Shown piece after piece: positions 12,301-59,052 of a stretch of 64,000 nt of DNA. The position numbers and the translations under genes are program-made. The stretch spans positions 32,001 to 96,000 of the forward strand of contig DASCPX010000027.1 of assembly GCA_036012755.1 (NCBI GenBank), given 5' to 3'. A model generated the notes under the pieces. The model saw nothing but the letters and a program-made list of their open reading frames with translations. It was not told the origin of the DNA and did not search any database. Every line of letters begins with the position of its first letter. Within the stretch, counting starts at the first letter, position 1. Origin of the DNA: Myxococcota bacterium. GTDB taxonomy: Bacteria; Myxococcota_A; UBA796; CAJQPC01.

Positions 12301-12401
12301 TGTCCCTGTGCGAACCCCGCGTCCTGGTCCTGGACGCGACCCGCGTCCCAGAGGACGTCGATCCCTGGATCCCCTGGGTTCGAGAGGAGATGGAGCGATG
12401 A
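9327..12401 (+). CDS. Alpha-2-macroglobulin family protein, N-terminal half (MG domains)
   Basis: N-terminal TM; SDRPLYEPGDTLQFRAL, VTDPRGNVL, VEPFTLPRFTV, SYAPGSEATL, VSLLGVDQSL. Confidence 0.8.
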   Translation: MRMRKKGWPAAAAALVLNVVLIGWCVGIPCISAWTQYGMVLDECPDGDPRVVANVHTYGLERNRPGNVDIYVAASWVVDDDERARQDPLGDFDATLYLVDGEALTELECGHPWDDNRGQLSCSVRLDLELPDGDYLLRAAIDTPLEDVEVDVELPLYRPAHIHVLSDRPLYEPGDTLQFRALSLRKGSLEPLDTRPGTWTVTDPRGNVLLEERTDGGPWGISASSFPLADDALVGDWVVGFSSGDDVAETRVRVEPFTLPRFTVETHAEDPWNAPGEAPELSGTVLYNSGAPVAEASVKVSLSSGGSWPLPNAWLDLEELQTDRYGRFRLQLETIPSDLVEPTDVSVYVGVTDTDGDTTAGFTSLKLSPDPLLAEAVTELGDGLMSDFNNRVYLRVTTPDGRALSNTDLGVRNLWDPRDAGKVVSTDEDGVAALQLDPGQPVNVVVPAQPIRPALEALVEPFVLSALRPSHRANTAPSIAERRDAQRLVEELAPCSHLISSTSYDEVVLETRRGLVSRVLGFDGALASCAEDRLEGAVLGTEDGLYDLGLNLEPPKDVTRLEALLVTVGGSEPEGFGANLRDRARVASSCVVGETLEGDSSFMAIWFADEDGSVSLRWLDWENQPVPWTARRCIEGAYSGLRASEAEEASTGTLRFRATPPYEPVTTIPASTTMQGFEFEVSVEDIGATTWRSAPGSVPHFRLRPDKVLLEGGEELRVQMLRGPSFSGSVPDALTLFDSDGHIMQCPRTPKALKDEPYDDYYHRDCPKPEDDNAVVFAIPSGREGFMRTESNGAQAIVYVRPSATLDLEITTAATSYAPGSEATLDIQASQQAVVSLLGVDQSLGQLAPLPGPDGLSELAVGASSSQPAWQFMDALALTSGAVRGDNAAMAAVLRVDALTQEDREPPYRSASGETVFNPEEELQSAFWELLGDLSAAVREWEATSPEDELLTNERLAEIHAEVLAERDDRGVTTVDAWDRPLELWRLPDTLLSLCEPRVLVLDATRVPEDVDPWIPWVREEMER

Positions 12402-14626
12402 GGTTGATCTGGTTTCTCAGCTGCTATGGGGCCGAGGCCCCCGACAACCAGGACGCTCAGTCCACGGCCGAGGAACAGCCGATGATGGACATGCCCGCGC
12501 CGGTGATGGCTCCGGGCAGCGGAGGCGCTGCCTCCGAGGACTGGGGCGGGGCGGAGCTGCGGGAGAAGGCGGAGGAGGAAGTGCGACGGGAGGCGAAGGA
12601 GCCCAGCTCGTCGAAGAAGAGCGCTCCCTCTCCGGAGCCGCTCGACGGAGAAACCGACAGTGACGACCGCGAGGCAGCCGTCGAGACGCGCTCCTGGTTC
12701 CCGGAGACCTTCGTCTGGGCCCCCTCGGTGCTCACCGATGAGAGCGGGAGCGCCACCCTCGCCGTGACCGTGCCCGACACGCTCACGACCTGGCGGGTGC
12801 TCGGCCTGGCCGCCTCGCGACAGGGCGCACAGGCCGGCGACGTGCACACCTTCACCTCCACGCTGCCGGTCTACGTCGACCCCCGCGTCCCGGAGAACTT
12901 GCGCCGCGGGGATCGCGTCGAGGTGCCGGTGCGGGTCGTCAACACCACCGACGCAGAGGTCGTCTCCAAGCTGCACGTGCGCGGCTCGGGCCTGGAGGGC
13001 TCCGCCACCGGAGTCGTTCGAGTTCCGGCCGGCGGCAGCATCGTCGAGACCGTCTCCCTGCGGGCGACCCAGCCAGGCCCGGCCTCGCTGGAGGCGGGGC
13101 TCGAAGGGGCCGACGCCATCGTCAAGGCCGTGCGTGTCGAGCCGACCGGGAGACCGCTGAGCCGCTCCTTCAGCGGCGTGCTGGGTACCGAAGACTACGT
13201 AGAGGTCCTGATGCCCGGCGGTGCCGAGTACGCGGAGGCCTCTCTCACCCTGTTCCCCGGCCCGCTGGGAGTGCTCCGCCGCGAGCTGGACGGTGCCGGT
13301 GGTGGCAGGCTCTTCGACGAAGCCTACGCCTTCACCCTGGGCGCTCGTGGCGGGGAGCTCCTCGCAGGACTCGGCGCCCAGCCGGACGCGGACCGCCTCG
13401 ACGCGCTGAGGACGACACGCCTCAGGGCGCAGCAACGGCTGGTCATCGCCTCTTCCTTCCTCGGCCCGGTCGAGCGCGCGACGATCCTCCACGCGGCCGA
13501 CCACGGCGTCGACGACGCCATCGCCGAGAGGCTCAGCAGCCGGTCACGACAGCGTCTTCGCACCGAGCAGCTCGGGGACGGGAGCTGGACGACCCCCTCG
13601 GGTACGACGCTCCAGGAGTTCCTCGTCCGCACCGCGTGGATCTGCGAAGCCGTGGACGACCCCGGAACGACCGTGCGCTGTGGCGCGGTCTTCGAACGCA
13701 ACGCCCAGCACCTCCTCGACGACAAGACGGCGGACGCCTACACGGCCGCGATGGTCCTTCGCAGTGGCGCAGGCAGCGACGACCTCCGCGACCAGCTGAC
13801 GGCGCTCGTCAGCGCCTCCCTCACGGAGCGAGGCGACGGACTCCCCGGAGTCGAGCTCCCAGCGGGCGTCCTCCGCCCGGACGGCGACCTCGCGACCCAG
13901 ACCGACGCCCTGGCCGCCGCCGCTGTCGTGCTCGATGATGACGAGGCCCGGGTGCTGTCCGCCGCGGTCATCGCGGCCTACGCGCCCGGACGCGGCTTTG
14001 GTGACGGCCTGACGAGCCTGCTGGCCCTGGAGGCGCTCGAGAAGCTCGGAGAGGCCGAGGTCCCCGAGGAGCTGGAGGTCCGGCTGCTGATCGACGACGA
14101 GGTCGTCGAGCGTCACGTCCTGAAGAAGTCCGCGCTCGGCGAGACCGCTGTCCTCAGGGCCCCGGCCCCGCTCTCTGGCGAGCATCGCTACGCCATCGAG
14201 GCAGACGGTGTCTGGCCTGGTCTCGCCTGGCACCTCGACGTCGATCTCTTCGTCCCCTGGGACGGTGAGGCAGGACCCGAGGGGTTGGACATCGAGGTCG
14301 AGCATGGCGAGCTCGCCTTCGGCAAGAGCACCAACGTGGCCCTCATCGTGGCGGTCCCGAAGGGCGAGGCCGTCGTGCTTCGCCACGCGCCCCCGGTGGG
14401 CTTCGTCGTCGACGAAGAGAGCATCACCGGCGGCACCGTCATCTCCGTCGACGACGGCGGCGTCACGGTGCGCGTGGAGGCGGGCCACGACGGCTTCGTG
14501 ACCGTGGAGTACCAGGGCGTGCCGACGCTCAGGGGCGAGCTCTCCACCGGGCCGGCCACGGTCGCGCTCTCGAGCGATCCCGACCTCGTCAAGGCCGTGC
14601 CGCCAGAGGTGTGGAGCCTGAGGTGA
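12398..14626 (+). CDS. Alpha-2-macroglobulin family protein, C-terminal half (no thioester motif)
   Basis: ATGA-coupled start; TRSWFPETFVW, VPDTLTTWR, LRRGDRVEVPVRVVN, EQLGDGSW; no CxEQ. Confidence 0.8.
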   Translation: MRLIWFLSCYGAEAPDNQDAQSTAEEQPMMDMPAPVMAPGSGGAASEDWGGAELREKAEEEVRREAKEPSSSKKSAPSPEPLDGETDSDDREAAVETRSWFPETFVWAPSVLTDESGSATLAVTVPDTLTTWRVLGLAASRQGAQAGDVHTFTSTLPVYVDPRVPENLRRGDRVEVPVRVVNTTDAEVVSKLHVRGSGLEGSATGVVRVPAGGSIVETVSLRATQPGPASLEAGLEGADAIVKAVRVEPTGRPLSRSFSGVLGTEDYVEVLMPGGAEYAEASLTLFPGPLGVLRRELDGAGGGRLFDEAYAFTLGARGGELLAGLGAQPDADRLDALRTTRLRAQQRLVIASSFLGPVERATILHAADHGVDDAIAERLSSRSRQRLRTEQLGDGSWTTPSGTTLQEFLVRTAWICEAVDDPGTTVRCGAVFERNAQHLLDDKTADAYTAAMVLRSGAGSDDLRDQLTALVSASLTERGDGLPGVELPAGVLRPDGDLATQTDALAAAAVVLDDDEARVLSAAVIAAYAPGRGFGDGLTSLLALEALEKLGEAEVPEELEVRLLIDDEVVERHVLKKSALGETAVLRAPAPLSGEHRYAIEADGVWPGLAWHLDVDLFVPWDGEAGPEGLDIEVEHGELAFGKSTNVALIVAVPKGEAVVLRHAPPVGFVVDEESITGGTVISVDDGGVTVRVEAGHDGFVTVEYQGVPTLRGELSTGPATVALSSDPDLVKAVPPEVWSLR

Positions 14627-15909: not shown

Positions 15910-16680
15910 GTGATCTACTACAGGCCGACCGGAGACGAGGTCTCGCTGTTCCAGACAGCGCACGAAAACCAGCTCCCGGTGCTCCTCAAGGGGCCGACGG
16001 GCTGCGGCAAGACCCGCTTCGTCCGGTTCATGGCCGAGCGCCTGGGGCGACCGCTGGTCACGGTCGCTTGCCAGGAGGACCTCGCCGCTGCCGACCTCAC
16101 GGGCCGCTTCATGCTGGAGGGGGGCTCCACCGTGTGGCGTGACGGGCCGCTCACCACCGCCCTGCGCCGAGGCGCGATCTGCTACCTCGACGAGGTCGTG
16201 GAGGCGCGCAGCGACGTGCTCACCGTGCTCCATCCGCTGACCGACGACCGGCGCATGCTCCCGCTCGAGAGGCTGGGCGAGCAGTTGGAGGCAGCCCCCG
16301 GCTTCCAGGTCGTGATCTCCTACAACCCCGGCTACCAGTCGGTGACCAAGGAGCTCAAGGAGAGCACCCGCCAGCGCTTCGTCTCGATCGCCTTCGACTA
16401 CCCGAGCGAAGACATCGAGATCGAGATCGTGCAGCAGGAGTCGGGCTGCGAACGCGACGTCGCCGAGGAGCTCGTGAAGCTGGGGACGGGCTCTCGCAAG
16501 CTCCGCGCCCACGGGCTCGCCGAGGGGGCCTCGACGCGCCTGTTGGTCTACGCCGGCAAGCTCGTCGTGGCCGGCGTGGGTCTCGAGGAGGCGGCTCGGG
16601 CCACCCTCGTCGGCTCTTTGACGGACGACGCGGAGATGACGCGCGCCTTGAACGAGCTGGTGCGCTCGGTGCTCGGCTGA
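15910..16680 (+). CDS. CbbQ/NirQ/NorQ family MoxR AAA+ ATPase (copy 1)
   Basis: [52 protein letters not shown]. Confidence 0.95.
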
Positions 16681-16681
16681 A

Positions 16682-18598
16682 ATGGGCGGCCCCACCTGGG
16701 AGCCCGATCACGAAGCCACCGACGAGGAGGTCGAGCGAGCGCTGCTGGCGCCCTTCCTCTTCGGCGACCCGGTGCTGCTGGCCAAGGACGGGAGCGTAGC
16801 GGGGACGCCTGTCGGCCATCTCCAGCGGCGCGTCCTGGCGTGGCTGACGATGGTGACGGGCCAGCACCTGAGGCTCGGACACGCGGACCCTGCCTCCACC
16901 GACGGCGTCCACCTGCTGCTCCCCCGCCACGCGCCGGCCCCCGCGGAACCGGCGCAGGACGAGGTGCTCTTCAGGGTGATGGCGCTGCTGCAGGCCGGCC
17001 TGCTGGCGCTTGGCTTCCTCGACCAGCGGGCCCTGCTGGTCGAGCTCCACCGCGACTGGGTCCTTCGATCGACCTGGCACCTGTTGGCCGCTCGGGCGGT
17101 CGCGCGCCACTTCGGCGAGGCCTACCCTGGCATCGCCCGTGACCTCGCCGCTGTCAGCGCGATGGAGAAGGCGACGCGCATGCGCGTGAACCTCACGGAG
17201 GTACCGCGGGAGGGCCTGCCGGAGGCCTTCGTCCCGCTGTACTCGCAGCTGAGCACGAGCTTCGCGCTCCGGACCGGCGGCGCCCCGGCCAAGGAGGCGG
17301 TCGAGGCCGTCGACGGGGCACCGCCCGACGGTCTGCGCCTCGTCGTGCTCGGCCAGGCGCGCAAGCTGAGGGAGCACTTCAGGAGCCAGCGGCTGGGTCC
17401 ACCTCCCCTGCCCTGGTACCTCGGCATCGTGCGCCCCGAGTGGATCCTCGCGGACCTGGAGCCCGACGAGAGCGAGGAGTGGCAAAAGGGCAACAAGCCC
17501 CTTCGGCAGCTGCTCGCTGCCATGGCGCGAGCGGGCAAGGTCGACGTCCCGGAGGTCGAGCAGTCGAAGCGCCGGGGGCTCAGGGCCCGCCTCAAGGCCC
17601 GCTTCGGTGCCGGCGAGGACCAGGACCTCGCCAAGACCCCGGCCTACGGAGTCCTCCGGGACGAGGCCCAGCAGGCATCACGCTCCAGTCGAGAGGAGCC
17701 CATACATGTTCCGGAGATCGTTAGACAAGACGTCCGGGAGTACGACGAGTGGGACCAGACTTCCCAGAGCTGGAAGCTGGCGGAGACGAGGGTCTCGAGC
17801 CCGGTGGCGCCAGCCGGATCGCTGTCCGCCTACGAGCAGGTGTTGGAGGCCAACGCCGCCCAGGTCCGACGGATCCGGCGTCGCTTCGAGGCCCTCCGCC
17901 ATGTCGAGCGCTGGCACACGGGCTTGCCGGACGGACCAGAGATCGACCTCGACCGGCTGATCATCGCCCACTGTGATCTGCTGGCTGGAACCCAACCCAA
18001 GCAGGACTTCCACAAGCGCTGGGTGCGGCGCCGCCAGCCGATCTGCGTGCTCACGCTGGTCGACCTGAGCGGCTCGACCCAGGGCCGCGTCCTGCATGCC
18101 CAGCAAGAGGCGGTCGTGCTCTTCGCAGAGGGCCTCCACGTGCTCGGAGTGCCCCACGCCTTCCACGGCTTCAACGGGCAGCACGCACAGGACATCTCGC
18201 TCTGGCGCCTCAAGGGCTTCGACGAGACCCTCGACGCTCCAGCCAGGAAGCGCCTGGGCAACCTCCGCGCGGCTGGCTCCACGCGCCTCGGGGCGGTCAT
18301 CCGGCACGCGACGTGGATGCTCGACCAGCGCCCGGAGCCACGTCGCGTGTTGCTCCTGCTGTCTGACGGAAAGCCCGAAGACCGTTCGGGATATCGCGGT
18401 GACTACGGAGTCCAGGACAGCGCGGTCGCCGTCCAGCAGGCCTCCAGCGCTGGCCTGTTGCTGCGCTGCATCAGCCTCGACACCCGCGACGGGAGCTACC
18501 TGCCCACGATCTTCGGGGCCAAGGGCTACCTGCAGCTCCAGAGCGTGGAAGAGCTCCCGCAGAGACTGCCGGAGCTCTTCAGGAACACGCTGAGCTGA
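16682..18598 (+). CDS. CbbO/NorD family VWA domain protein (copy 1)
   Basis: EYDEWD, DGPEIDLD, DLSGST MIDAS, STRLGAVIRHA, LLLLSDGKPED..Y.G.YG..D. Confidence 0.88.
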   Translation: MGGPTWEPDHEATDEEVERALLAPFLFGDPVLLAKDGSVAGTPVGHLQRRVLAWLTMVTGQHLRLGHADPASTDGVHLLLPRHAPAPAEPAQDEVLFRVMALLQAGLLALGFLDQRALLVELHRDWVLRSTWHLLAARAVARHFGEAYPGIARDLAAVSAMEKATRMRVNLTEVPREGLPEAFVPLYSQLSTSFALRTGGAPAKEAVEAVDGAPPDGLRLVVLGQARKLREHFRSQRLGPPPLPWYLGIVRPEWILADLEPDESEEWQKGNKPLRQLLAAMARAGKVDVPEVEQSKRRGLRARLKARFGAGEDQDLAKTPAYGVLRDEAQQASRSSREEPIHVPEIVRQDVREYDEWDQTSQSWKLAETRVSSPVAPAGSLSAYEQVLEANAAQVRRIRRRFEALRHVERWHTGLPDGPEIDLDRLIIAHCDLLAGTQPKQDFHKRWVRRRQPICVLTLVDLSGSTQGRVLHAQQEAVVLFAEGLHVLGVPHAFHGFNGQHAQDISLWRLKGFDETLDAPARKRLGNLRAAGSTRLGAVIRHATWMLDQRPEPRRVLLLLSDGKPEDRSGYRGDYGVQDSAVAVQQASSAGLLLRCISLDTRDGSYLPTIFGAKGYLQLQSVEELPQRLPELFRNTLS

Positions 18599-18601: not shown

Positions 18602-19966
18602 TCAGCTCGGCGCGAAGAGGAAGGGGTAGCTCACGATGACGATGCCGCCGCCCCTGGGCTCGGGGAAGGTGAGCTTCATCATGGTGGAGTTCAGGCAGCT
18701 CTCGACTGCCCGGTTTCCGACCGACGAGGACTTCGTCTGGGCCGCGCTGACCTCGCCCTCGCGGGTGATGGTGAACTTCACGGAGACCTTGCCGCCGATG
18801 GTCGGGTCCTTCGTGAGCTCGCGCTGGTAGCAGTAGCGGAAGCGGTTCAGGTTGCGCTTGATGACCTTGTCGACCTGCGCCTTGTCCAGGCCACCCACGA
18901 TGAGGCCGCCCTCGATGCCCTTGATGGTGCCCTCCGTGCGCTCGCCGAGCGCGCCCTCGCCGAAGTCACGGGCGTCCTGCCCGATGCCTTCGAGGCCGAG
19001 CCCGCCTCCGGAGTAGGCCTTGCCGCCGCCGCCGAGGCCGGAGCCACGGGAGCTGAAGCCGCCGGAGCCCATCATGACCCCCTTGGCTCCGATCAGGCCG
19101 CCGACGCCGTCCATGATGCCAGCGCTCAGCCCCGTGGAGTCCAGACCGGCGGTCGCCCCGATCTCGGACCAGGCCCCCATGAGCCCGGCATCCCGTGCGA
19201 TCTCGCGATCCTGCGTCGAACCTCCGCCGCGGGCCCGCAGCATCTTGCCCCGCTCGTCTCCGCGCTTGCCTGCCTTGCGGATGTGCCGCTCACCCTCGCG
19301 AGTCACTTCCTTGGCCTTGGTGACAGCGGCGGGCTTCGGGACCTCTGGAGCCTGGATCAGCACCTGGGTGAAGCGATCGGGGACCTCGTTGAGATCACTC
19401 GACATCGCTACGGGGCTGGTCAGCGCGACGACCGCAAGCATGGCCGCCGCGAAGAGCGAGAAGGTGACCGTGCCGACGAGCGGCAGGTCGAGATCGGCCT
19501 TGCCCTTGGGGATCTTGGAGCCGGGCGCGGTCAGCCGGGCGACGTAGGTGATCGGACCGACCCGGATCGCGACCTGCTCCTCGCAGGCGAGGGTGACGCG
19601 GCGAATGCCGGTGATGCCCTCGTCGCCGGAGTCCGAGAGGTGCTCGCTGCTCGGCCAGGCCTTCTCGAGGTTCGCGACGAGCCGTCCATCCTCGACGGAG
19701 AAGAGCTCGAAGGGCTCGCTGTCGGGGAGCAGCTCCTCGGGCATGGGGAACTCGGCGGTGCCGAGCATCACGGTGCCCGAGGAGCCGTCGAGGTGCCGCA
19801 CGTCGAGCAGGGTGTCTCCCCAGGCTGTCGCCACCTCCAGGACCAACGGGGCCTGGGTGTCGAGGCCGAGGTCGCCTCGGCCGGCGCCGCTGGTCGTGAT
19901 GACGGCCATCGGGTCCTGAGTACTGAGCAGGTTCGGGCGCAGCTCGCCCTTGAGACGGATCTCCAT
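18602..19966 (-). CDS. AgmX/PglI/GltG-like TonB C-terminal domain protein
   Basis: LEVATAWGDTLLDV N-terminus, TM, Gly-rich linker, GGLDKAQVDKVIKRN..FRYCYQREL..P...GKV.VKF.I...FPEPRGGGIVIVSYPF. Confidence 0.85.
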   Translation of the reverse strand: MEIRLKGELRPNLLSTQDPMAVITTSGAGRGDLGLDTQAPLVLEVATAWGDTLLDVRHLDGSSGTVMLGTAEFPMPEELLPDSEPFELFSVEDGRLVANLEKAWPSSEHLSDSGDEGITGIRRVTLACEEQVAIRVGPITYVARLTAPGSKIPKGKADLDLPLVGTVTFSLFAAAMLAVVALTSPVAMSSDLNEVPDRFTQVLIQAPEVPKPAAVTKAKEVTREGERHIRKAGKRGDERGKMLRARGGGSTQDREIARDAGLMGAWSEIGATAGLDSTGLSAGIMDGVGGLIGAKGVMMGSGGFSSRGSGLGGGGKAYSGGGLGLEGIGQDARDFGEGALGERTEGTIKGIEGGLIVGGLDKAQVDKVIKRNLNRFRYCYQRELTKDPTIGGKVSVKFTITREGEVSAAQTKSSSVGNRAVESCLNSTMMKLTFPEPRGGGIVIVSYPFLFAPS

Positions 19967-20046: not shown

Positions 20047-22704
20047 TCAAGGCTCCGTGAACATCACCTCGCGCGGTCGTCCGCGGAGGTTGTAGTCGCT
20101 CGACATCGTGAAGCCGTAGGCCCCGGCGTTGCACACCAGCAGCACGTCGGACTCGTGGGTCTCCGGCAGCCGACGGCCCCGGCCGAGGATGTCCCCCGTC
20201 TCGCAGATCGGGCCCACGATGTCGGCGACGATCGCTCCCGGCTCGCCAAGCCGCGTGAGGTTCAGCACCTCGTGGCGGGCTCCATACAGCGCAGGTCGGA
20301 TGAGGCTGTGCATGCCGGCGTCAACGCCGACGTAGCGGCGGTCGCCCTTGGACTTCACCTGGCTCACCCGCGCGAGCAGCACCCCGGCGAGCGAGACCAG
20401 GTAGCGACCCGGCTCGAGCCAGAGCTCATAGGGACTTCCTCGACGGATCTCCGCGAGCGAGGCGTCGACCTCGGCCATGTCCAAGGGGCCTTGACCCGGT
20501 CCCGACTGGACGGGCAGACCACCGCCGAGATCCAGCGCCTGGACCTCTGGGAGCTCTCCGGCGACCTCGACGAGGAACTCGGCGATGTCTCGCCAGCGGG
20601 TCACGGCCTTCATCCCGCTGCCAGCGTGGGCGTGGAGCCCGACGACCCGCACGTCGTGGCGTCGGGAGAGCTCGATGAGGTGCTCGATCTCCTCTGGCGG
20701 GACCCCGAACTTCGAACGATCACCGGCTGTCACGACGTAGCGGTGGTGGCCTCCGCCACGGCCTGGATCGAGCCGGACGAGGATCTCGCGTCCCCGAAAC
20801 AGCGCCGGCCACCGCTGGAGGGGGTAGGTCGAGTCCAGGGTGACGCGACAGCCGGCCTCGAAGCCTGCCTGGTAGTCCCCGGGAGGCGCGAAGTTGGGGG
20901 TGAACAGGATGTCGGCCGAGGGGCAGATCTCCCTGACGCGCCGGATCTCGCCGGGGCTCACGCACTCCATGCCCAGCCCGCGGTCGTGGAGGCGGCGAAC
21001 CACCTCTGCGTTGGTGTTGGCCTTCACGGCGTAGAAGATCCGGTCGACGCTCTCCAGCCCCAGGAGCTCGTCGGCGGCCCGGTCCAACTCCGAGGCGGAG
21101 TAGACGTACACCGGCGTCCCCCTGTCGGCCTCTGCGAGGAGCTCGGCGCGACGCGCGGTCCACCATCCCGAGAAGATGGCCGGCGCAGCGCGAGGCTGGA
21201 AGACCTCTTCCCAGGAGGGGCCGAAGACCGGGTCAGAGGTGTCGGAGAAGAGCTGGGCGTGCAGGTCGCGCATCAGGGGGTCGGCGTCGGCCTCGTCGAC
21301 CACGAAGCTCAGGTTCAGGTCGCTGGCCGCCTGGCTCATGAGGTGGATCTCACGGTCGGCGAAGCGCTCGAAGGCGCCGCCGAGGCGGTGGAGGGTCGCC
21401 CGGATCCTCCGACCAACCACGGAGACGCTGGCCGCGGGGGCGATGAGCTTCGGGCGGCACACGGCCGCGAGATCCTCGAGCAGGCCGTCCAGGGTGGGCT
21501 TGGCCAGCGTGTTCGCGGCCGGGTCGAGGGAGACCGTGACGTTGGTCTCGCTGGTGGCGACGAGATCGATGGACAGCCCGTGCCTCGCGAAGATGGCGAA
21601 GGCCTCTGCCAGGAAGCCCACTTGCTGCCACATGCCGACGGTGTCCATCGACACCAGCGCGATGCCCTTCCGTGTCGACAGCGCCTTGACCTGCGCCCTC
21701 CCGCTCGAGGCCCGCGCGGTGACGACCGTGCCCTCCATCTCCGGCGCCTTCGTGCAGCAGATGTGAAGCGGGATGCCCTGCTCCTTCACCGGTCGCAGGC
21801 AGCGGGGATGGAGCACCTTGGCGCCCATGGTCGCGAGCTCCCGGGCTTCGTCGTAGTCCAGACGACGCAACAGCCGAGCGGAGGGGATCCGGTGTGGATC
21901 GGCCGTGAACATGCCCGGCACGTCGGTCCAGATCTCCAGGCGCCGGGCCTGAAGGCGAGCGGCCAGGTAGGCCGCCGAGGTGTCCGATCCACCACGGCCC
22001 AGCAGCACGGTGTGGCCCTCTGAGTCGGCGGCGATGAAGCCCTGCGTGAGCACGACCTCGCCGTCGAGGGCGTCGAAGGAGTCCATCAGCTGCGGATCCG
22101 GCTCGTAGCTGCACCGAGCGCTCCCGAAGCGGCGCTCCAGCTCGGACTCCGGCAGTGACGACAGCAGCTCGCGCGCGTCCTGCCAGGATGTCGCCACTTC
22201 CGCTCTGGAGAGCCAGGCCGCCCCGAGGCGCGTCGACATCAGCTCCCCCGCCGAGAGGATGCGAGCGCGCAGGCGCGGGCTCACCTCGCCGATGTCACGG
22301 CCACCGCGGGCAAGGCGGGACAGATCCTCGAACAGCTCGCCTAGGTGCTCCTCGTCGTCCAGACCCATCGCCTCGGCCTGCTCGACATGCAGCGCGCGAA
22401 TCGCTCCCAGCTCGGCGTCGATGTCGCCACCGGCGGCGGCCACCTCCGCCAGTCCTCTCAGGCGGTCGCTGGCCCCTGACAGGGCCGAGCAGACGACCAC
22501 GGGCCGAAGCCCCTCGTCCAGGCGCGTGCGCAGGATGCGGCGGATGGTCTCCCAGCTCTGGAGGCCGGTGACGCTGGTGCCGCCGAACTTGAGCACGACC
22601 CAGGAGTCCGCTCCAGGCCAGCGGGGATCGGGGTCGGCGTCGGCTGCTCGGTCCCAGCCCTGGTCGTCCTCGTCCCAGGAGGGATCCCGGGACCTGGGTA
22701 TCAC
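20047..22704 (-). CDS. lysAC: Bifunctional aspartate kinase/diaminopimelate decarboxylase
   Basis: VLKFGGTSV, LGRGGSDTSA, ACT domains, then FYAVKAN, SKFG, HAHAGSG, EPGRYLV, GPICETGD; GTGA-coupled start. Confidence 0.93.
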   Translation of the reverse strand: MIPRSRDPSWDEDDQGWDRAADADPDPRWPGADSWVVLKFGGTSVTGLQSWETIRRILRTRLDEGLRPVVVCSALSGASDRLRGLAEVAAAGGDIDAELGAIRALHVEQAEAMGLDDEEHLGELFEDLSRLARGGRDIGEVSPRLRARILSAGELMSTRLGAAWLSRAEVATSWQDARELLSSLPESELERRFGSARCSYEPDPQLMDSFDALDGEVVLTQGFIAADSEGHTVLLGRGGSDTSAAYLAARLQARRLEIWTDVPGMFTADPHRIPSARLLRRLDYDEARELATMGAKVLHPRCLRPVKEQGIPLHICCTKAPEMEGTVVTARASSGRAQVKALSTRKGIALVSMDTVGMWQQVGFLAEAFAIFARHGLSIDLVATSETNVTVSLDPAANTLAKPTLDGLLEDLAAVCRPKLIAPAASVSVVGRRIRATLHRLGGAFERFADREIHLMSQAASDLNLSFVVDEADADPLMRDLHAQLFSDTSDPVFGPSWEEVFQPRAAPAIFSGWWTARRAELLAEADRGTPVYVYSASELDRAADELLGLESVDRIFYAVKANTNAEVVRRLHDRGLGMECVSPGEIRRVREICPSADILFTPNFAPPGDYQAGFEAGCRVTLDSTYPLQRWPALFRGREILVRLDPGRGGGHHRYVVTAGDRSKFGVPPEEIEHLIELSRRHDVRVVGLHAHAGSGMKAVTRWRDIAEFLVEVAGELPEVQALDLGGGLPVQSGPGQGPLDMAEVDASLAEIRRGSPYELWLEPGRYLVSLAGVLLARVSQVKSKGDRRYVGVDAGMHSLIRPALYGARHEVLNLTRLGEPGAIVADIVGPICETGDILGRGRRLPETHESDVLLVCNAGAYGFTMSSDYNLRGRPREVMFTEP

Positions 22705-23363
22705 TGGCCTCCGGCGGCGCCGACCTCGCCCAGCTGGATGTCCACCCTGACCTGGACCGCATCGGAGATCGACTCGTGCTGGCACTCGGCGACCAGGGCC
22801 GCGAGCTGCTCGCCGAGCCCGAAGGCCTCGATGGAGAGCTCCGCGCTCTCAGAGCTGACGAAGTGCCAGCCGCTGTCGTGACGGGTGGTGCGCACCGGGA
22901 ACCGGGCCTCGACGGTGGCTCCGGACAGCAACATCTCGCCCACGAAGACCGTGGAGTCGGATGAGGCTCCGACCTCGAGGCCATCCTCCGGCCAACCCTC
23001 GAGGTCGGTGATCACGAAGCTCGACGTCCTGTTGTCGGCCACCTCGAAGAAGATCCGCTCGATGCGCTCGTCGCGCTCGGGGTCCTCGCTGTCCCAGCTC
23101 TCCATGTCCACGTCGACTCGTCCCCTGAGCCCGGTGAGCGTGCCGTCCACCGGGACGTCCCACTTGCCGGCGAGGGCCGAGAAGCTGCCCGGCACCGCGA
23201 CGCTCCCGTTCTTCATCGTGACCACGTCGACCCTGCCGCGGATTCGCATTCCCCCGGCCTCCGTCGACGGTTCGGGCAGGGGCTCGACCGTTGGCTGGAG
23301 ATCTGGCTCGGGGACGGTCTCGTCGCCCGCGCAGGCGAGGAGGGCGAGCAGTGGGGACATCAT
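22701..23363 (-). CDS. YceI-like lipoprotein
   Basis: LLALLA-C; VPGSFSALAG, VDMESWDS..PERDERI...FF, final strand VQVRVDI; TGATG-coupled start. Confidence 0.75.
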   Translation of the reverse strand: MMSPLLALLACAGDETVPEPDLQPTVEPLPEPSTEAGGMRIRGRVDVVTMKNGSVAVPGSFSALAGKWDVPVDGTLTGLRGRVDVDMESWDSEDPERDERIERIFFEVADNRTSSFVITDLEGWPEDGLEVGASSDSTVFVGEMLLSGATVEARFPVRTTRHDSGWHFVSSESAELSIEAFGLGEQLAALVAECQHESISDAVQVRVDIQLGEVGAAGGQ

Positions 23364-35228: not shown

Positions 35229-35357
35229 GCAGATCACGGCGAGCGGGTGCGACCTGGAGATCCCAGTGCCGCGACGCGGGCACCCCACGTCGGGCGTTCA
35301 AACACTTGAAATCTGGTCTCTCGGCTTGGCCCGGCTCTTGCTAATGTGCGAGATACG

Positions 35358-45633: not shown

Positions 45634-46385
45634 TCTGGCTGTTGTGGGCATGCACCGGCGAGCTCGACGAGCCCGTCACCAGCCTCCCGAACGAGGACCC
45701 GCTCGAGCCCGCCGTCGTCCCGGACGGGGGCGAGCCTCTCGAGGAGATCGCTGCATCGCACATCCTCGTCAAGTACGAGGGCGCCTCTGGGTCCGTCGGC
45801 ATCACCCGCTCCCGTGGGCAAGCCTTGGAGATGATCGAGGAGGCCCGCGCGCGGATTGTCGCTGGCGAGGACTTCAGGGTGGTCGCCTCGGAGGTCAGCA
45901 ACGACAGCAGCTCCGTCCGGGGGGGCTGGATCGGCGTCGGGGACTACTCCACCTGGGTCCCCGAGTTCTCCGACGTCGCCTTCGCGCTCGAGGTCGGCGA
46001 GCTGAGCGCGGTGGTCGAGACGCCCTTCGGCTTCCACATCATCCGGAGGGAGCCGCGCGATCCCGTGGCGCTCAAGCACATCGTCATCCGCCATGGGGGC
46101 TCCCCCGGTTCAAGCGACGCAGAGGTCAGCGCACGGACTCGGGGGGACGCCCGCGCGTTGGCGAACCAGGCGCGAGAGCGTGTCCATGGTGGCGAGGACT
46201 TCGAAGAGGTCGCCAAGGATCTCTCGGATGGAACCTACGGGCCACGGGGTGGGGACCTCGGCGAGTTCCTCGGCGGCCAGCTGGGCGTCGAGTTCGACGA
46301 GGCGGTCGACGAGCTGGAGCCGGGCGAGCTCAGCGAGGTCTTCGAGACCCGCCACGGCTACCACGTCATCCTTCGCTACGAGTGA
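45630..46385 (+). CDS. Tandem parvulin-type peptidyl-prolyl isomerase, probable lipoprotein
   Basis: ASHILV, ETPFGFHII, KHIVI, GGDLG, ETRHGYHVI. Confidence 0.92.
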   Translation: MIWLLWACTGELDEPVTSLPNEDPLEPAVVPDGGEPLEEIAASHILVKYEGASGSVGITRSRGQALEMIEEARARIVAGEDFRVVASEVSNDSSSVRGGWIGVGDYSTWVPEFSDVAFALEVGELSAVVETPFGFHIIRREPRDPVALKHIVIRHGGSPGSSDAEVSARTRGDARALANQARERVHGGEDFEEVAKDLSDGTYGPRGGDLGEFLGGQLGVEFDEAVDELEPGELSEVFETRHGYHVILRYE

Positions 46386-46795
46386 TCCTCACGCTCGCCT
46401 GTACGACCTCTGCCCCGGCGCTCTGCCTGCCGGAGGAGTGCGTGCTCTTCGAGGCTCGCGAGCTCGCCAAGGCCGGGTCGAGGCAAGAGGCCAAGGCGCT
46501 CTGCGGCACCCTCGAGGGGATCTGGGAGGACGAGTGCTGGTTCCTCGTGTCCGACACACTGGACCTGGTGGGCGAAGAGGCCTTCGCGACCTGCCGGATG
46601 GCGCGCTCCTTCGAGCGTCACTGTCTCGGTCACGCGCTGACCCGCCAGGCCGAGATCCTCATGGCCGAGCCGGGGAACGAGGCCGCGGCACTGCGAATCC
46701 TCACCGATGGCTTCGCGAGGCACTATCCCCTCCCTCGCGCCAAAGCCGAGGCCCAGCACCTCGTCGACGCGGAACTCTCCCGGCGGGACGACTGA
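46382..46795 (+). CDS. Hypothetical Cys-rich lipoprotein
   Basis: GTGA-coupled start; MILTLA-C; C..L...W.DECWF pattern. Confidence 0.6.
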   Translation: MILTLACTTSAPALCLPEECVLFEARELAKAGSRQEAKALCGTLEGIWEDECWFLVSDTLDLVGEEAFATCRMARSFERHCLGHALTRQAEILMAEPGNEAAALRILTDGFARHYPLPRAKAEAQHLVDAELSRRDD

Positions 46796-46807: not shown

Positions 46808-47356
46808 TCAGAGGCAGCCGTCGATGGCGTCGCGTAGAGCCGCGTCCTTGGCCTCGATGTCCCGTGTGCAGACCCGGAGGTCCGGGTACAGGACCATGAT
46901 CTGGGGAAATGACTGGTCAGGGCTGGCACCCAGCCACCACTCCACCTGGTCGCCGATCACGGGCGCCGAGATGCCGAACTCGTCCGCCCAGAACTGGAGG
47001 TCGTCTACCTCGGGAGGCTGGCCGTCCAGGTCCTGGGCCAGCACCGTGACGTACATCACGTCGTCATCGGCGTAGACCTCGTAGGTCTCTTGCGTGGTTC
47101 GAGCGAGCTCCTGGCACGGCCCACACCAGATCGTCGAGATGTCGACGACCGTGACGAGCCCGTAGAACTGCCAGAGGCTGACGTCGTCGCCGTATTGGTC
47201 GGGGCCGACCAGCTCGGGGATGATCTCTCCGACTCCAAAGCCCTCCCCGACTGTCTCCACGGGCACCTCGCCGGCCGGCCAGCCGTTCGCTGGCGCAATC
47301 CAGACCTCAGCGTCGCTGTAGAGGTGGGGGACACAAGCAAGGACCAGAGAAACCAC
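46808..47356 (-). CDS. TlpA-like thioredoxin/redoxin lipoprotein
   Basis: DQYGDDVSLWQFYG..VVDISTIWCGPC, cis-Pro motif SFP; start inferred. Confidence 0.8.
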   Translation of the reverse strand: MVSLVLACVPHLYSDAEVWIAPANGWPAGEVPVETVGEGFGVGEIIPELVGPDQYGDDVSLWQFYGLVTVVDISTIWCGPCQELARTTQETYEVYADDDVMYVTVLAQDLDGQPPEVDDLQFWADEFGISAPVIGDQVEWWLGASPDQSFPQIMVLYPDLRVCTRDIEAKDAALRDAIDGCL

Positions 47357-50906: not shown

Positions 50907-51581
50907 TCAGGGCACGCTCAGCGTGAACTGCTGGGCGGTCCCGGCGGGATCGTCGCTGGCGCGACGGCTGAAGGTGATGGAAGGGGGGGCTAGCTCCAGG
51001 GTACCGGCGACGTTGTTGCCCGCTCCAATGTAGAGCTCCAGCAGACCGCCGCCAGGTTCTCCCGGACGAGCGTTGAAGTTGACGACGTTGTCGCCAGGCA
51101 GGAGGAAGGCGCTGATGTCGAGCATCAGCTGGGCATCACCGGAGACGACGGTCGCCACTGGCTGACCGCCGATGAACACGTCCACTGCCTGTCCGGTGGA
51201 GCCGTTGTCCTGGCTGACCAGCCACCAGCTCTCCGGCGGGATCGCCTGCTGCGGTGGAGCCACGACCGGTGCGATCTCCGGGGTGAGCTCGGCGACCGGC
51301 GCGCTGACGGGCGACTCGGGCTCGACAGGCTCGACAGGCTCGACAGGCTCGACAGGCTCGACAGGCTCGGGGGCCGGTGGCTCAGGCGCTGCCGGCCGGG
51401 ATGCCGCTGGCTCCGTGGAGATGATCTCGATGCTGTAGCGGGGCGCGTCGATGTACACGTCCCCGTTTCCGTCGATCCTGACGTCCACGCTCGACAGCTC
51501 GAAGTTGGTCAGGCCATTGGCCTGGACTCCGTTGATGTAGACGTTGCCGGCAGAAGCCAGCGATGCCGCGAGGAGCAGCAT
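50907..51581 (-). CDS. Hypothetical secreted protein with Pro/Glu-rich linker
   Basis: MLLLAASLASA signal; two beta-rich domains joined by (EPV)n. Confidence 0.7.
   Translation of the reverse strand: MLLLAASLASAGNVYINGVQANGLTNFELSSVDVRIDGNGDVYIDAPRYSIEIISTEPAASRPAAPEPPAPEPVEPVEPVEPVEPVEPESPVSAPVAELTPEIAPVVAPPQQAIPPESWWLVSQDNGSTGQAVDVFIGGQPVATVVSGDAQLMLDISAFLLPGDNVVNFNARPGEPGGGLLELYIGAGNNVAGTLELAPPSITFSRRASDDPAGTAQQFTLSVP
51319..51369. repeat. 9-bp tandem repeat (ggctcgaca x5.7) encoding EPV repeats
   Basis: Exact tandem copies read directly from the sequence. Confidence 0.95.
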
Positions 51582-51587
51582 CAGGGA

Positions 51588-51919: not shown

Positions 51920-53113
51920 TCAGCCGCTGTCGGCAGCGCCCTCGACGGGGGCCCCGTCCTCTGGCCCGACACTTGGCGCGAGCCAGCGGAAGAGCACCGG
52001 CTTCACCCTCTCCATCACGAGGATGCTCGGTGTGGCGATGAAGATGGTGCTGTAGGTACCGACGAAAACGCCGATGAGGAGCGCCAGCGCGAAGGTCCTG
52101 ATCACGGGCCCGCCCAGGAAGAGCAGCGGGAGGATGGCCAGGCCCGTGGTGATCGAGGTGGCGAGCGTGCGGCCGAGGGTCTCGTTGATCGAGTCGTTGA
52201 TCAACTTCACCGTCTCCGACTTTCGGTAGCGCTTCATGTTCTCGCGCACCCTGTCGTAGATGACGATGGTGTCGTTGAGCGAGTACCCGATGATGGTCAA
52301 CAGCGCGCCGATCATCGACAGGTTCAACTCCTCCCCGATCAAGGTGAAGATGCCGACCGTGATGGCCACGTCGTGGACCAGGGCGAGCACCGCACCCGGC
52401 GCGAAGACCAGGTCGAAGCGGAAGGCGATGTAGAGGAGGATGAAGGCGATGGTGGCGCCCATCGCGAGGAGACCCTGGGTGCGCAGGTCCCCACCGACCT
52501 TGGGACCGACGGCGTCGACCTTGGGCACGGTGAAGGTCTTGCCAACGAACTCGCTGGCGATGCTCTCCTTCACCTGAGAGGACAGGTTCGTGAGCTTCAC
52601 CTGGAAGGTGTTGTCCTCTGCGAAGGTGGTCGCCTCGGCGCCGTCTACGACGCCGGCGAGGGCCGCGTTGAGCGCCGTGAGGTCGACCTCCACACCTGGC
52701 GTGTGTTCGACGATCACTCGGGCCCCGACCTGGGCGTCCATGCGCGATGCCTGGATGAAGTCCCCACCGTAGCGCTCGCCGATGACGTGCTCGACCTCGC
52801 TCTTGAGCTCCTCTGTACCGAAGGTCGCGTCGCGGACGCGGATGCTGTAGGTGTAGTCCTCTTCGGCGTTGATCTGCTGCACCGAGTCGTCGGAGAGGCC
52901 GAGCTTGCCAACGGCCGAGCGAACCTCTGCGATGTCGGTCGGCTCCTCGAAGTCGACGACGATCTCCATTCCGCCGGTGAAGTCGATGCCCCAGTTCGGC
53001 TCCATGAAGATGAATGTGACGACGGAGAGCGAGACGAGCAACAGCGAGAGAGCGCCGAAGATGTAGCGCTTGCCTAGGAAGTCGACGTCGCTCTTGGGCT
53101 TCAGGAAGTTCAT
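51920..53113 (-). CDS. secF: Protein translocase subunit SecF
   Basis: GIDFTGG, VGPKVG, HDV, IGYSLNDTIVIYDRVREN, GTYSTIFIA. Confidence 0.96.
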   Translation of the reverse strand: MNFLKPKSDVDFLGKRYIFGALSLLLVSLSVVTFIFMEPNWGIDFTGGMEIVVDFEEPTDIAEVRSAVGKLGLSDDSVQQINAEEDYTYSIRVRDATFGTEELKSEVEHVIGERYGGDFIQASRMDAQVGARVIVEHTPGVEVDLTALNAALAGVVDGAEATTFAEDNTFQVKLTNLSSQVKESIASEFVGKTFTVPKVDAVGPKVGGDLRTQGLLAMGATIAFILLYIAFRFDLVFAPGAVLALVHDVAITVGIFTLIGEELNLSMIGALLTIIGYSLNDTIVIYDRVRENMKRYRKSETVKLINDSINETLGRTLATSITTGLAILPLLFLGGPVIRTFALALLIGVFVGTYSTIFIATPSILVMERVKPVLFRWLAPSVGPEDGAPVEGAADSG

Positions 53114-53122
53114 CGCGCTTTC

Positions 53123-54883
53123 CTAGAACGCCAGCTTCGCCGTGGACTTCCGGACGACGAAGTCCATGAAGGTCCGAGAGACGAAGATCGCGGTGAAGAG
53201 GGTCGTCAGGATGCCGATGAGCAGCGTGACCGCGAAGCCCTTGATGGGTCCCGTGCCGTAGCTGTAGAGCACCACCCCGGCGATGCCGGTGGTGATGTTG
53301 GCGTCGAGGACGGCGGAGAGCGCGTGCTGGTAGCCGGCGTCGACGGCGGAGCGCGCGTTCTTGCCGACCGCCAGCTCCTCCCGGATGCGCTCGTAGATGA
53401 TGATGTTCGCGTCGACGGCCATACCGACCGTCAGCACGATGCCGGCGATGCCAGGCAGGGTCAGCGTCGCGCCGAAGGCCGCGAGCATGGCCATGACGAA
53501 GAAGACGTTCAGGATGAGCGCCATGTTCGCGACGATGCCGGGCTTTCGGTAGTAGAAGAGCATCGCGAAGATGACCAACAGGCCGCCGATGAGCGTGGCG
53601 TTCCGGCCAGCCTCGATGCTGTCCTGACCCAGCTGCGGTCCGACGAGACGTACATCGCCCATGCTGACCGGGGCTGGCAGAGCCCCCGTCCGCAAGACCA
53701 TGGCCAGCACTCGGGCATCGTCCTGAGCGGAGCCACCGGAGGCCCCCATCGAGATCTGGGCCCTGCCGCCACCGATGCGCTCGTTGATGGTGGGCGCCGA
53801 GCGGACCTTGCGGTCGAGCACGATGGCGAAGCGCTTGCCGACGTTGTCGCCGGTGAGGTCGCCGAAGCGCTGCGCGCCGGCAGGCTTGAACTGCAACAGC
53901 ACGACCGGGCGGTTGAACTGGTCCCAGCCGGTCTGGGCGTCGTTGACGTCGTCGCCTTCCAGCTCGACCCGGTCCAGCAGCACCAAGGGCCGGGAGCGCA
54001 CGAGGTTGCCCTCCTGGTCCTCCTCGTACTCCCAGAGGACTCGGTTGTTCCTTCCGATCCGTCCAGAAACCGACAGCCACTCGTTCAACAGCTCGTCGTC
54101 GAGAAAGTCCTCTTCGGTCATCGCGTCCTGCGCGTCGAGGACGGCGTCCTCCAGAGCGGCCTGCTCGAAGTCTTCGTCGACCATGAAGAACTCGAGCTTC
54201 GCGGTCGTCCCGATGGCCTGCTTGGCCATGTCGAGGTCGGCGACTCCGGGAAGCTGCACGTTGATCCGCCGGTCGCCCTTGCGGACGATGCTCGGCTCCT
54301 TCACGCCGGTCTCGTTCACCCGGTTGCGGAGCGTCTCGAGGGCCTGCTCGAGCGCTTGGTTCTTGATCTCGTCCGCCCGCTCGTCCGTGAGCCGGAAGGT
54401 GTGGGCGCCGGTCTCCTGGGAGACGCTGTACTTGTACTGGGGCAGCCCTCGCGTCGTGCGGAAGCGCGTGGACATCAAGTCCTGGAGGGTGGCCAGGTTC
54501 TCCTCGCTGACCATGACCTCCAGCTCGGGCTCGCCGCGGACGCGCCGAACGTCCTCGATCTCGAGGCCTTCGCGCTCGGCGACGTCCCAGACCGACTGCA
54601 CGTCGCGGCTGACGGTGGCGAGGATGGCCTCGTCGACGTCGACATCGAGGGTCAGGTCGATGCCGCCTTGGAGATCGAGGCCGAGGACCAGGACCGTGTC
54701 GGGCAACAGCGCCCGCCATCCGGTCTCCTCGACCTCCTCGGAGGTCCCCTCGTCGAAGCTCTGCGCCGCGTCGGCGGCGGCTTGGTCCGCGTCCTGCAGG
54801 AAGGTCGGCAGCAGGCTGTAGATCGACCCGAGCAGGGCAAGGATGATCACTCCCATGCGAATCCACCAGGAACCGCCCATCAC
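53123..54883 (-). CDS. secD: Protein translocase subunit SecD
   Basis: LGLDLQGG, RVNETGVKEP, VQLPG, LR.GALP, TLTLPGIAG, GMAVDANIIIYERIREE. Confidence 0.97.
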   Translation of the reverse strand: MMGGSWWIRMGVIILALLGSIYSLLPTFLQDADQAAADAAQSFDEGTSEEVEETGWRALLPDTVLVLGLDLQGGIDLTLDVDVDEAILATVSRDVQSVWDVAEREGLEIEDVRRVRGEPELEVMVSEENLATLQDLMSTRFRTTRGLPQYKYSVSQETGAHTFRLTDERADEIKNQALEQALETLRNRVNETGVKEPSIVRKGDRRINVQLPGVADLDMAKQAIGTTAKLEFFMVDEDFEQAALEDAVLDAQDAMTEEDFLDDELLNEWLSVSGRIGRNNRVLWEYEEDQEGNLVRSRPLVLLDRVELEGDDVNDAQTGWDQFNRPVVLLQFKPAGAQRFGDLTGDNVGKRFAIVLDRKVRSAPTINERIGGGRAQISMGASGGSAQDDARVLAMVLRTGALPAPVSMGDVRLVGPQLGQDSIEAGRNATLIGGLLVIFAMLFYYRKPGIVANMALILNVFFVMAMLAAFGATLTLPGIAGIVLTVGMAVDANIIIYERIREELAVGKNARSAVDAGYQHALSAVLDANITTGIAGVVLYSYGTGPIKGFAVTLLIGILTTLFTAIFVSRTFMDFVVRKSTAKLAF

Positions 54884-55236
54884 TTCCCTCCCTTGCTCGA
54901 AGCCTCGTCCTCGTCCGAGCGGTCCACCGCCTGGATCGACTCCTTCTTGAACCGGATGCGGGTCCTCTCCGAGACCTGCACCACGACCTCCGACTCGCGG
55001 ACCTCGTGGACGACGCCGCAGATGCCGCCCTCGCTGACGACGTCATCCCCCTTCTTCATGGTGGCGAGGAGCTGCTCGTGCTCCTTGCGCGCCTTGGTCT
55101 GTGGGCGGATGACGAGGAGGTAGAAGACGCCGACGATGAGGGCGAGCAGGCCGATGCTGCTGTAGTCGCAGCCCCCGCCAGAGCTGCCTGCTGCCGCTGC
55201 GTCCTGGGCCCAGGCTTGGGTGAACAACCACATCAT
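54880..55236 (-). CDS. yajC: Preprotein translocase subunit YajC
   Basis: FYLLVIRPQ.K..K.H, KKGDDVV..GGICG; position in operon. Confidence 0.93.
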   Translation of the reverse strand: MMWLFTQAWAQDAAAAGSSGGGCDYSSIGLLALIVGVFYLLVIRPQTKARKEHEQLLATMKKGDDVVSEGGICGVVHEVRESEVVVQVSERTRIRFKKESIQAVDRSDEDEASSKGGK

Positions 55237-57602: not shown

Positions 57603-57700
57603 TCGGATCTCCCTGTTCGCAGGCTGGGCCAACTGCACATTACATCGGAATATGGGGTAGCCCGCATTAGACAGTCAAAATTCTCCAAGCTGGAGAGGGT

Positions 57701-58687: not shown

Positions 58688-59052
58688 GGACTTGCTGGAG
58701 TTCCGGGCCTGGGCTCGAGGCTTTGCTCCAGGTGCAGCTGGAGACCCTCGATGTCGGCTGAGTTGACGGCGAGGGGCTCGGGCCAGATGGTCTGGGCGTC
58801 GGTCTCGCTGACGCCGTCGCGGTCCGGGTCGTGGGCAGCGCGCACGCTCACGGTTCCGATGCGCGCCCTGACCTGCACCTCGAAGGGGCCGTTTCCGCTC
58901 TCTACGACCGCACTGCCGGCGAGCAACGGCGGGCCGGAACTCTCGATGAGCAGCACCTCGACGACGACAGGGCCGACACCGGAGTAGCGCACGTCACCCC
59001 GGATGGACACGGTGTCCTGGGCAAGCGCCTGCGCCAACAGCAAGTGCATCAT
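58684..59052 (-). CDS. Hypothetical secreted protein
   Basis: ATGA-coupled to udg; MMHLLLAQALA signal; DPDRDG Ca-binding-like motif. Confidence 0.6.
   Translation of the reverse strand: MMHLLLAQALAQDTVSIRGDVRYSGVGPVVVEVLLIESSGPPLLAGSAVVESGNGPFEVQVRARIGTVSVRAAHDPDRDGVSETDAQTIWPEPLAVNSADIEGLQLHLEQSLEPRPGTPASP

Follow-up and report, generated by a model that had tools for sequence, protein, structure and literature searches.

Very short, probable signal peptides without a basic n-region in a Myxococcota lineage, and translocase substitutions that may accompany them

This study concerns a set of unusually short export leaders in a window of 64,000 nucleotides from a Myxococcota bacterium (assembly GCA_036012755.1, contig DASCPX010000027.1, positions 32,001 to 96,000 of the forward strand; positions below are those of the window unless a locus is named). 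A sequence-only reading of the window had listed ten such leaders, nearly all without a basic n-region, and had proposed that the lineage uses a minimal signal grammar served by adapted Sec, Lgt and LspA proteins. All ten leaders read in the window sequence as listed, five of them on the minus strand (starts at 23363, 47356, 51581, 55236 and 59052) and three with GTG starts (35358, 46382 and 47356). The starts at 12398, 23363, 45630, 46382, 55236 and 59052 do lie in stop/start overlaps, and no in-frame ATG, GTG or TTG stands upstream of 43282, 45630, 51581 and 55236, where in-frame stops occur 5, 37, 3 and 14 codons upstream, respectively. The statement that almost all lack a basic n-region also holds, the exception being 12398, with Arg at position 2.

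The leaders of lipoprotein type are 6 to 11 residues long. An A2M-domain protein (12398-14626, +) has eight residues before Cys9 (12398-12424), Arg at position 2 among them, and a start that overlaps the stop of the gene at 9327-12401 and is preceded by GAGGAG. The leader of the YceI-like protein (22701-23363, -; leader 23331-23366), with a stop/start overlap, counts 10 or 11 residues before the Cys, depending on whether translation begins at an ATG or at the GTG one codon earlier; in its ortholog from the same genus (L078) the leader is 10 residues long and differs in sequence. At 35358-35387 (+), a protein of no Pfam family begins at a GTG with nine residues before Cys10, and this start is ambiguous, since a GTG at 35346, four codons upstream, would give a 13-residue leader with Arg. 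Three adjoining genes follow on the plus strand: an amidohydrolase/TSP3-repeat protein (43282-45633) with eight residues before Cys9 (43282-43308), a GGAGG site, a stop five codons upstream and no upstream start; a two-domain parvulin peptidyl-prolyl isomerase (PPIase; 45630-46385) with seven residues before Cys8 (45630-45653), a stop/start overlap and no upstream start; and a protein of no known family (46382-46795) with six residues before Cys7 (46382-46402), whose GTG and the PPIase stop codon overlap. The thioredoxin-fold protein on the opposite strand (46808-47356, -), with seven residues before Cys8 (47333-47356), is with 35358 one of the two ambiguous cases among the ten: a GTG nine codons upstream would give a 16-residue Arg-rich leader, but the ortholog in locus L006 has an ATG at the same short position; at the family level, the leader of the ortholog in L092 has 22 residues, Arg among them.

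Two leaders end in A-x-A and are predicted to be of the signal peptidase I (SPase I) type. One, at 51549-51581 (-), consists of 11 uncharged residues, has an in-frame stop three codons upstream and is short in its L006 ortholog too; the other, at 59020-59052 (-), also has 11 residues, with His3 and Gln8 and no Lys or Arg, starts in a stop/start overlap, and has an L006 ortholog with a 9-residue leader. The remaining N-terminus, ten residues at 55207-55236 (-), belongs to YajC (gene 54880-55236). It has the shape of E. coli YajC, which starts with a similar 10-residue stretch free of Lys and Arg, and for this reason we do not count it as evidence about the lineage. The N-terminus of E. coli YajC is not known to be a cleaved signal; the protein is a single membrane protein with an internal helix of its own, and its N-terminus, unlike the short leaders, contains Asp, but it shares with them the ten residues, the lack of Lys and Arg and an A-x-A end before a polar linker. 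It (L332) is possibly an overlooked precedent for them. Downstream of yajC, at 51920-54883 (-), lie genes that we take to be secD and secF-like from gene order and motifs; the order tgt-yajC-secD is that of E. coli. As a control, translation of 1767-1838 (+) gives a canonical 23-residue lipoprotein leader bearing Lys and Arg.

Of the domains behind the claim that several of the mature proteins are normally extracytoplasmic, A2M, YceI, Rotamase and TSP_3 are above Pfam cut-offs, as is the YajC domain, but the supposed TlpA proved to be a marginal AhpC-TSA/Redoxin match. Public protein collection entries with exactly the same starts exist for the 251-residue PPIase and the 118-residue YajC. In the L006 (SecD 77% identical) and L078 orthologs the short length and the Cys are kept and the sequence has changed, and in L092, a family member at greater distance, the orthologs of two of the genes start with leaders of 16 and 22 residues that contain Arg. 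Among 120 PPIase proteins (the query and 119 listed matches), a lipobox Cys is present in 82; the leader has at most 10 residues in 24 of these, 11-13 in 28 and at least 14 in 30. One protein family, as judged from these predicted leaders, occurs with both long and short ones.

To place the window in its genomic context, we called genes in the surrounding genome (6.73 Mb, 68% G+C, 96% complete) with our own hexamer model, which gave 5,951 genes, 5,814 of them with closed 5' ends; 3,572 starts were taken as high-confidence, being either fixed by a stop/start overlap or the first possible start. A usual lipoprotein signal places its Cys at about residue 15-35 (PROSITE rule). Tabulation of the first Cys and lipobox across the genome, which the sequence-only reading had proposed as a check, confirmed a class of much shorter leaders. 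Without any filter, Cys occurs 138, 214, 150 and 110 times at positions 7, 8, 9 and 10 of the high-confidence starts, where about 42 are expected, and is scarcer than expected at positions 2-4; 492 of these 612 Cys are preceded by Ala, Gly or Ser. When the lipobox filter is applied (Ala, Gly or Ser required at -1, and charged residues barred over the seven positions nearest the Cys, with an exemption for Arg or Lys at positions 2-3), a lipobox Cys falls at residue 6-13 in 526 of the 3,572 high-confidence starts (14.7%) and after only 176 of 74,476 internal start codons (0.24%). Among the genes with closed 5' ends, 516 have no ATG, GTG or TTG that would place the Cys beyond residue 13, and 113 more are overlap-fixed; for 363 lipobox genes both a short and a longer start are possible, and for 132 only a long one. 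Because the 22,751 start codons examined would yield by chance only about 55 short calls and about 143 long calls, the roughly 900 short candidates are real and the long class is small; clearly canonical lipoprotein leaders number 57 among the high-confidence starts. Lipoprotein candidates in total, some 900-1,000 of about 5,900 genes, make up an unusually large share.

Leaders with an A-x-A end form a second class. They are found at 233 of the 3,572 starts, compared with 0.87% of internal codons, with A-x-A type ends peaking at positions 9-11; genome-wide, 531 genes have such a leader near the best start, where about 149 would be expected by chance, and canonical-looking SPase I signals are seen at 43 of the 3,572 starts. 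The 1,286 overlap-fixed starts include 194 short lipoprotein leaders, 76 short A-x-A leaders and 18 canonical lipoprotein leaders. The 194 comprise 59 leaders of six residues, 61 of seven, 43 of eight, 17 of nine and 14 of 10-12 (mode 6-7), and the lipoprotein leaders in general (mode 6-8) are shorter than the A-x-A leaders (mode 8-11). A minimal signal grammar is thus seen genome-wide and, as described below, in relatives, but it is not exclusive, since canonical leaders with Lys or Arg co-exist with it.

Leaders this short could be artefacts of start calling, if translation in fact began further upstream, by recoding or from rare codons, and the true signals were of normal length. The 363 genes with an alternative upstream start, 43 of which have an apolar upstream stretch, and the two ambiguous window cases fit this explanation, but 216 genes already contradict it: in these the reading frame is closed by a stop no more than 16 codons before the Cys, and therefore no start codon of any kind could give a longer signal. 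Shine-Dalgarno-like sites at 4-10 nucleotides peak at the short starts, preceding 160 of 416 (38%) compared with 668 of 1,873 other genes (36%) and 581 of 5,483 internal codons (11%), and in the ambiguous class the ribosome-binding motifs favour the short start (30% vs 17%). The in-frame sequence upstream of short starts is neither more basic nor more apolar than that of other genes, and CTG, ATT, ATC or ATA is no commoner there (159/629) than elsewhere (905/3,572). On the strength of the in-frame stops, the 194 short against 18 canonical leaders at overlap-fixed starts, the position of the ribosome-binding sites and the counts of rare codons, we rejected upstream or non-standard starts, and we consider it very improbable that mis-called starts account for the class.

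The comparison with other taxa proposed alongside the original observation revealed that short leaders are graded by kinship. Leader lengths in relatives come from a sample of 14-100 kb per genome (300 kb for the focal genome) and one scoring heuristic, so that the counts rest on small samples and heuristic choice of starts. In the focal genome 43 of 55 leaders had at most 10 residues. For the same genus the count was 11 of 11 and for the family, this genus among its members, 52 of 101; six other families of the order together gave 23 of 96. Outside the order the counts were 6 of 38 for other orders of the class and 1 of 18 for a pool of 17 genomes from the phylum. In none of these last seven (among 56 leaders) does an upstream stop impose the short start, and most of them resemble false calls; the other families of the order have mostly 11-16-residue leaders with one Arg. 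The trait is graded from the genus outward to the order.

In composition, the short leaders are Leu-rich at -3 and -2, have Ala (71%), Gly (16%) or Ser (13%) at -1 of the +1 Cys, and continue after the Cys with a polar tether rich in Pro, Gly, Asp and Glu. Lys or Arg occurs in 25 of 630 short lipobox leaders, in 14 of them at position 2. They are somewhat more hydrophobic than canonical leaders (mean Kyte-Doolittle 2.95 vs 2.68), and the early mature region that follows is acidic, with a mean charge of about -3 over 20 residues. Small residues at position 2 are few (7 of 112 six-residue leaders), which is partly built into the filter and was not used as evidence. A twin-arginine translocation (Tat) signal was considered as their identity and rejected: Tat-like starts (9 of 3,572) are a separate set, and the short leaders contain almost no Arg. 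In E. coli, Asp at +2 decides between inner- and outer-membrane sorting of lipoproteins. Only 19 of 629 fixed-start lipobox leaders have Asp at +2, so by this rule most of the short-leader lipoproteins would go to the outer membrane.

The main reason to think that the leaders function is their cargo. The best Omp85 match (BamA) has an overlap-fixed 13-residue leader without Lys or Arg, TolC-like proteins and TonB-dependent receptors have uncharged leaders of 11 residues, and all of these leaders open with the apolar core, with no basic n-region. Short leaders free of Lys and Arg were counted by eye in 6 of 6 Omp85, 3 of 5 TolC-like, 3 of 8 TonB-receptor, 1 of 2 LolA and about half of 19 readable OmpA-domain genes, the remaining members of these families keeping canonical leaders. 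It might be supposed that such leaders are not exported, being vestiges or membrane anchors on the cytoplasmic side, but the best Omp85 match, the TolC-like proteins, the TonB receptors, a LolA and many OmpA-domain proteins work only outside the inner membrane, and we give this explanation very little weight. That the short leaders are real, functional Sec-type signals is, from their sequences and those of their cargo, highly probable. Two observations on outer-membrane components may be added. A 1,506-residue frame at G000:C43:83311-84564 combines an N-terminus that by eye resembles an inner-membrane efflux transporter with two TolC-type OEP domains. BamD is normally a lipoprotein; its YfiO-type orthologs in the order (L028-L057; G000:C149:39926-40537) have A-x-A leaders, and none of the 23 readable N-termini from 30 loci ends in a lipobox Cys.

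The full complement of export genes considered here is encoded in the genome: one SecY, one SecA, one Ffh, one signal recognition particle (SRP) RNA, three LepB-like proteins, five Lgt, two LspA, one Lnt, two LolA and two deformylases. Loss of SRP was considered and rejected, as Ffh was found in 29 of 30 genomes and the SRP RNA in the focal genome; Ffh itself has three order-specific columns, none in the core of the M domain. A missing deformylase was likewise rejected, two copies being present. The suggestion that LspA is adapted found no support: both copies keep two conserved Asp motifs of E. coli LspA, nothing order-specific was seen by eye in 30 sequences compared together with E. coli LspA, and the periplasmic insertion is common to other orders of the class. 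Nor did an adapted Lgt emerge, a divergent Lgt paralog type occurring in 60 of 121 genomes of the phylum; an order-specific Lgt paralog was rejected on the same ground, the one divergent type tested being phylum-wide and present in long-leader lineages. Two lspA and two lgt genes form a cluster, lspA-lspA-lgt-lgt, at G000:C59:100000-102591 (L001), with three more lgt elsewhere, two of them of the divergent type.

These gene numbers bear on the possibility that the short leaders follow a separate route, either lipid-first targeting, in which an Lgt paralog acylates the Cys and the lipid supplies hydrophobicity, or delivery by SRP and YidC with no cleavage of the leader. Such a route would be in keeping with the presence of five Lgt and two LspA genes, of which four form a cluster, with the shorter length of lipoprotein leaders relative to A-x-A leaders and with the fact that six residues are too few for a textbook transmembrane helix. 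On the other hand, genomes throughout the order have three to six Lgt matches, and the divergent type is shared with lineages that have long leaders. Lipid-first targeting, moreover, is not a general answer, because short leaders are seen as well on barrels that are not lipidated, BamA among them, and we regard a separate route as rather unlikely.

Of the adaptations proposed for the machinery, those of Sec fared best: candidate changes in SecY (I187A/S) and SecA (L372Y and N369S) are order-wide and one in SecA (A488G) is found in the family, but a genome outside the order that has SecY I187S, G178, keeps normal leaders. Five columns of SecY are order-specific, one of which, in an ungapped block, is E. 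coli position 187. It is Ala or Ser in 29 of 29 genomes of the order and in 120 of the 120 nearest homologs, whereas the 40 genomes outside have Ile (36), Met (3) or Ser (1) there. Position 187 is presumably counted among the six isoleucines of the E. coli pore ring. Published work describes a ring of six isoleucines in E. coli (PMC8082313) and four core ring residues, 86, 191, 278 and 408 (PMC13537251), and a mammalian residue four before its ring residue extends the apolar patch of the ring (PMC11186639), a position that would map to 187. At SecY 411, 7 of 9 family genomes have Ser and most outgroups have Gly. A cell-free screen gave values of 1.66 for V411S and 0.47 for I187M, in log2 above wild type (PMC13537251, Data S1); the V411S comparison is indirect because outgroups mostly have Gly at 411. 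In SecA, all 20 order genomes have Tyr at 372 and Ser at 369, against 0 and 1, respectively, of 9 outside; at 488, 8 of 10 family genomes have Gly, and all 19 others have Ala.

Several of these positions touch the sites of the laboratory suppressors prlA (SecY) and prlD (SecA). The prl mutations map to the pore ring, gate and plug (PMC3164448); in SecA, A488 is a hotspot for PrlD mutations, and Prl phenotypes also follow from changes at A373/L187, with altered packing at A373 (10.1101/2021.08.31.458331). SecY 187 adjoins mapped sites, SecA 372 and 369 adjoin the mapped site 373, and SecA 488 is itself a mapped site with a different residue. The likeness to suppressors, with changes at or beside mapped sites (PMC3164448; 10.1101/2021.08.31.458331; PMC13537251), is limited in that the changes seen here are natural and fixed across an order or family, and the core ring residues are wild type.

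We propose that the functional short signals go together with a permissive translocase, in which the SecY and SecA changes would lower the barrier to channel opening; this reading as a whole, built from sequence comparison, has in our judgement about an even chance of being right. The Leu-rich stretch alone may be bound by SecA or SRP as a bare hydrophobic region (h-region), and orientation may come from the acidic early mature region instead of a basic n-region, so that charge asymmetry would be kept. Short signals could have become viable through a prl-like state shared by the whole order, with SecY I187A/S next to the pore ring and SecA L372Y/N369S next to A373, and SecA A488G and SecY 411S may have accompanied their spread in the family. 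On geometric grounds a helix of 6-8 residues is too short to cross the bilayer, so that the N-terminus would have to move out of the cytoplasm, at a cost that would be low only for an uncharged end; an uncharged and possibly still formylated N-terminus drawn into the membrane would bring the cleavage site to the enzymes of the outer leaflet. SRP binding blocks deformylation, so that a formyl group can persist (PMC5454389), and LspA cuts within the membrane (PMC9360617). Ordinary Lgt, LspA and Lnt, or LepB, would then process the leaders as usual, and leaders would have been eroded gene by gene. In its strongest form, the proposal is that the entire order runs on a naturally fixed 'prl' translocase, that stepwise SecY and SecA changes removed the need for an n-region and for most of the h-region, and that 6-11-residue signals, sinking into the membrane N-terminus first and not spanning it, serve to export about a quarter of the proteome in the focal genus. 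This version we hold tentatively, at somewhat less than an even chance.

A number of findings weigh against a role for the translocase, and several of them would speak for leaders that are real Sec signals but need no special machinery, 5-8 Leu-rich residues and an acidic mature region sufficing and the SecY and SecA changes being unrelated lineage markers. The core ring residues 86, 191, 278 and 408 are unchanged, and 187, one turn before 191, lies outside these four. It is the loosest of the ring-associated positions: in 147 diverse SecY, from a representative set biased to query-like proteins, it is Ile in 84, Val in 23, Met in 13, Ala in 10, Thr in 9, Ser in 7 and Phe in 1, and 411 is Ser in 22 of 140. 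Outside the order, G178 has Ser at 187 without short leaders: of nine OmpA-domain genes taken from it, eight have a readable export leader, of about 11 to more than 20 residues, and all eight leaders bear Lys or Arg, so that a test for convergence was negative over these nine genes. In another genome, G004, 187S, 411S and 488G occur together, yet only 2 of 13 leaders are short. Canonical and short leaders use the same single SecY and single SecA, and the short leaders are, as noted, somewhat more hydrophobic. Acidity of the mature region is the same in canonical leaders (-3.3 vs -3.15), and as a specific compensation it was rejected because canonical lipoproteins are equally acidic. The relatives are not independent either, because the order represents one evolutionary event. 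Among the rows listed in Data S1 of PMC13537251 there is none for I187A or I187S, and I187A/S, L372Y and A488G were not among the tested alleles found in the parts of the literature searched. Because of G178, G004 and the variation at position 187, the SecY and SecA changes are permissive at most. What speaks against ordinary machinery is that forced short leaders occur only inside the order (0 among the 56 candidates outside), at the same boundary as the SecY and SecA changes, and that loss of n-region charge and short h-regions lower export in model bacteria (PMC5875014). Short signals with no help from the translocase are accordingly a possibility that we find doubtful, behind the permissive translocase favoured here. 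The SecY of G178 (G178:C62:9358-10374; L320) is an independent occurrence of Ser at 187, and two of the Lys/Arg-bearing leaders of that genome are only about 11-13 residues long.

Relative to known systems, the short leaders are best described as a variant of Sec/SPII (signal peptidase II) and Sec/SPI signals that, by sequence, fails two defining features, the basic n-region and the usual length (PMC9360617, PMC5875014). With Sec/SPII signals processed by Lgt, LspA and Lnt (PMC9360617) they share an apolar core, a lipobox Cys and a polar tether, and lgt, lspA, lnt and lolA are all encoded; they differ in having no basic n-region, in a whole length of 6-12 residues, and in a -3/-2 that is mostly Leu-Leu, not Leu-Ala/Ser, with mostly Ala at -1, so that neither the length nor the n-region usual for Sec/SPII is found in them. 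The A-x-A leaders resemble Sec/SPI signals (PMC5875014) in their apolar core, small residues at -3 and -1, acidic polar mature start, barrel or periplasmic cargo and the presence of LepB-like genes, but have no n-region, a predicted cleavage after residue 8-11, and merged h-region and cleavage region (c-region). No description of such short leaders was found in the open-licence PMC and bioRxiv literature searched. Very large secretomes have been predicted in Myxococcota (PMC11495043), with nothing on short signals in the available parts of that paper.

A basic n-region and a core of membrane length are textbook requirements of signal peptides, and about 900 lipoprotein candidates and several hundred other predicted exported proteins appear to do without both. 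They would constitute a natural library for minimal signal size, for orientation and for access of the cleavage site to Lgt, LspA and LepB, and the SecY and SecA changes offer a short list of single substitutions. Rule-based predictors that need Lys or Arg and a Cys beyond residue 15 would under-call the surface proteome of the lineage. The training labels of SignalP 6 presuppose an n-region no shorter than two residues (PMC9287161). If the proposal is true, the leaders would mark a natural lower limit of the bacterial signal peptide, with export machinery and a thousand client genes co-evolving, and minimal signals of this kind could serve the engineering of protein secretion.

Several other genes of the window deserve mention. 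The alpha-2-macroglobulin is seemingly split over 9327-14626 (+), where a first gene with MG2 and bait-region domains overlaps a second with the A2M domain and its own lipobox leader. Two similar pairs, at 15910-18598 (+) and 23363-26652 (-), each combine a MoxR-like AAA+ ATPase, whose GvpN-like match falls below the cut-off, with a large protein that belongs to no NCBIfam family. Finally, at 18602-19966 (-) and 3072-5655 (-) lie a GltG-like gliding-motility protein, with a match that does not reach the family cut-off, together with two TPR proteins; their N-termini look alike by eye.

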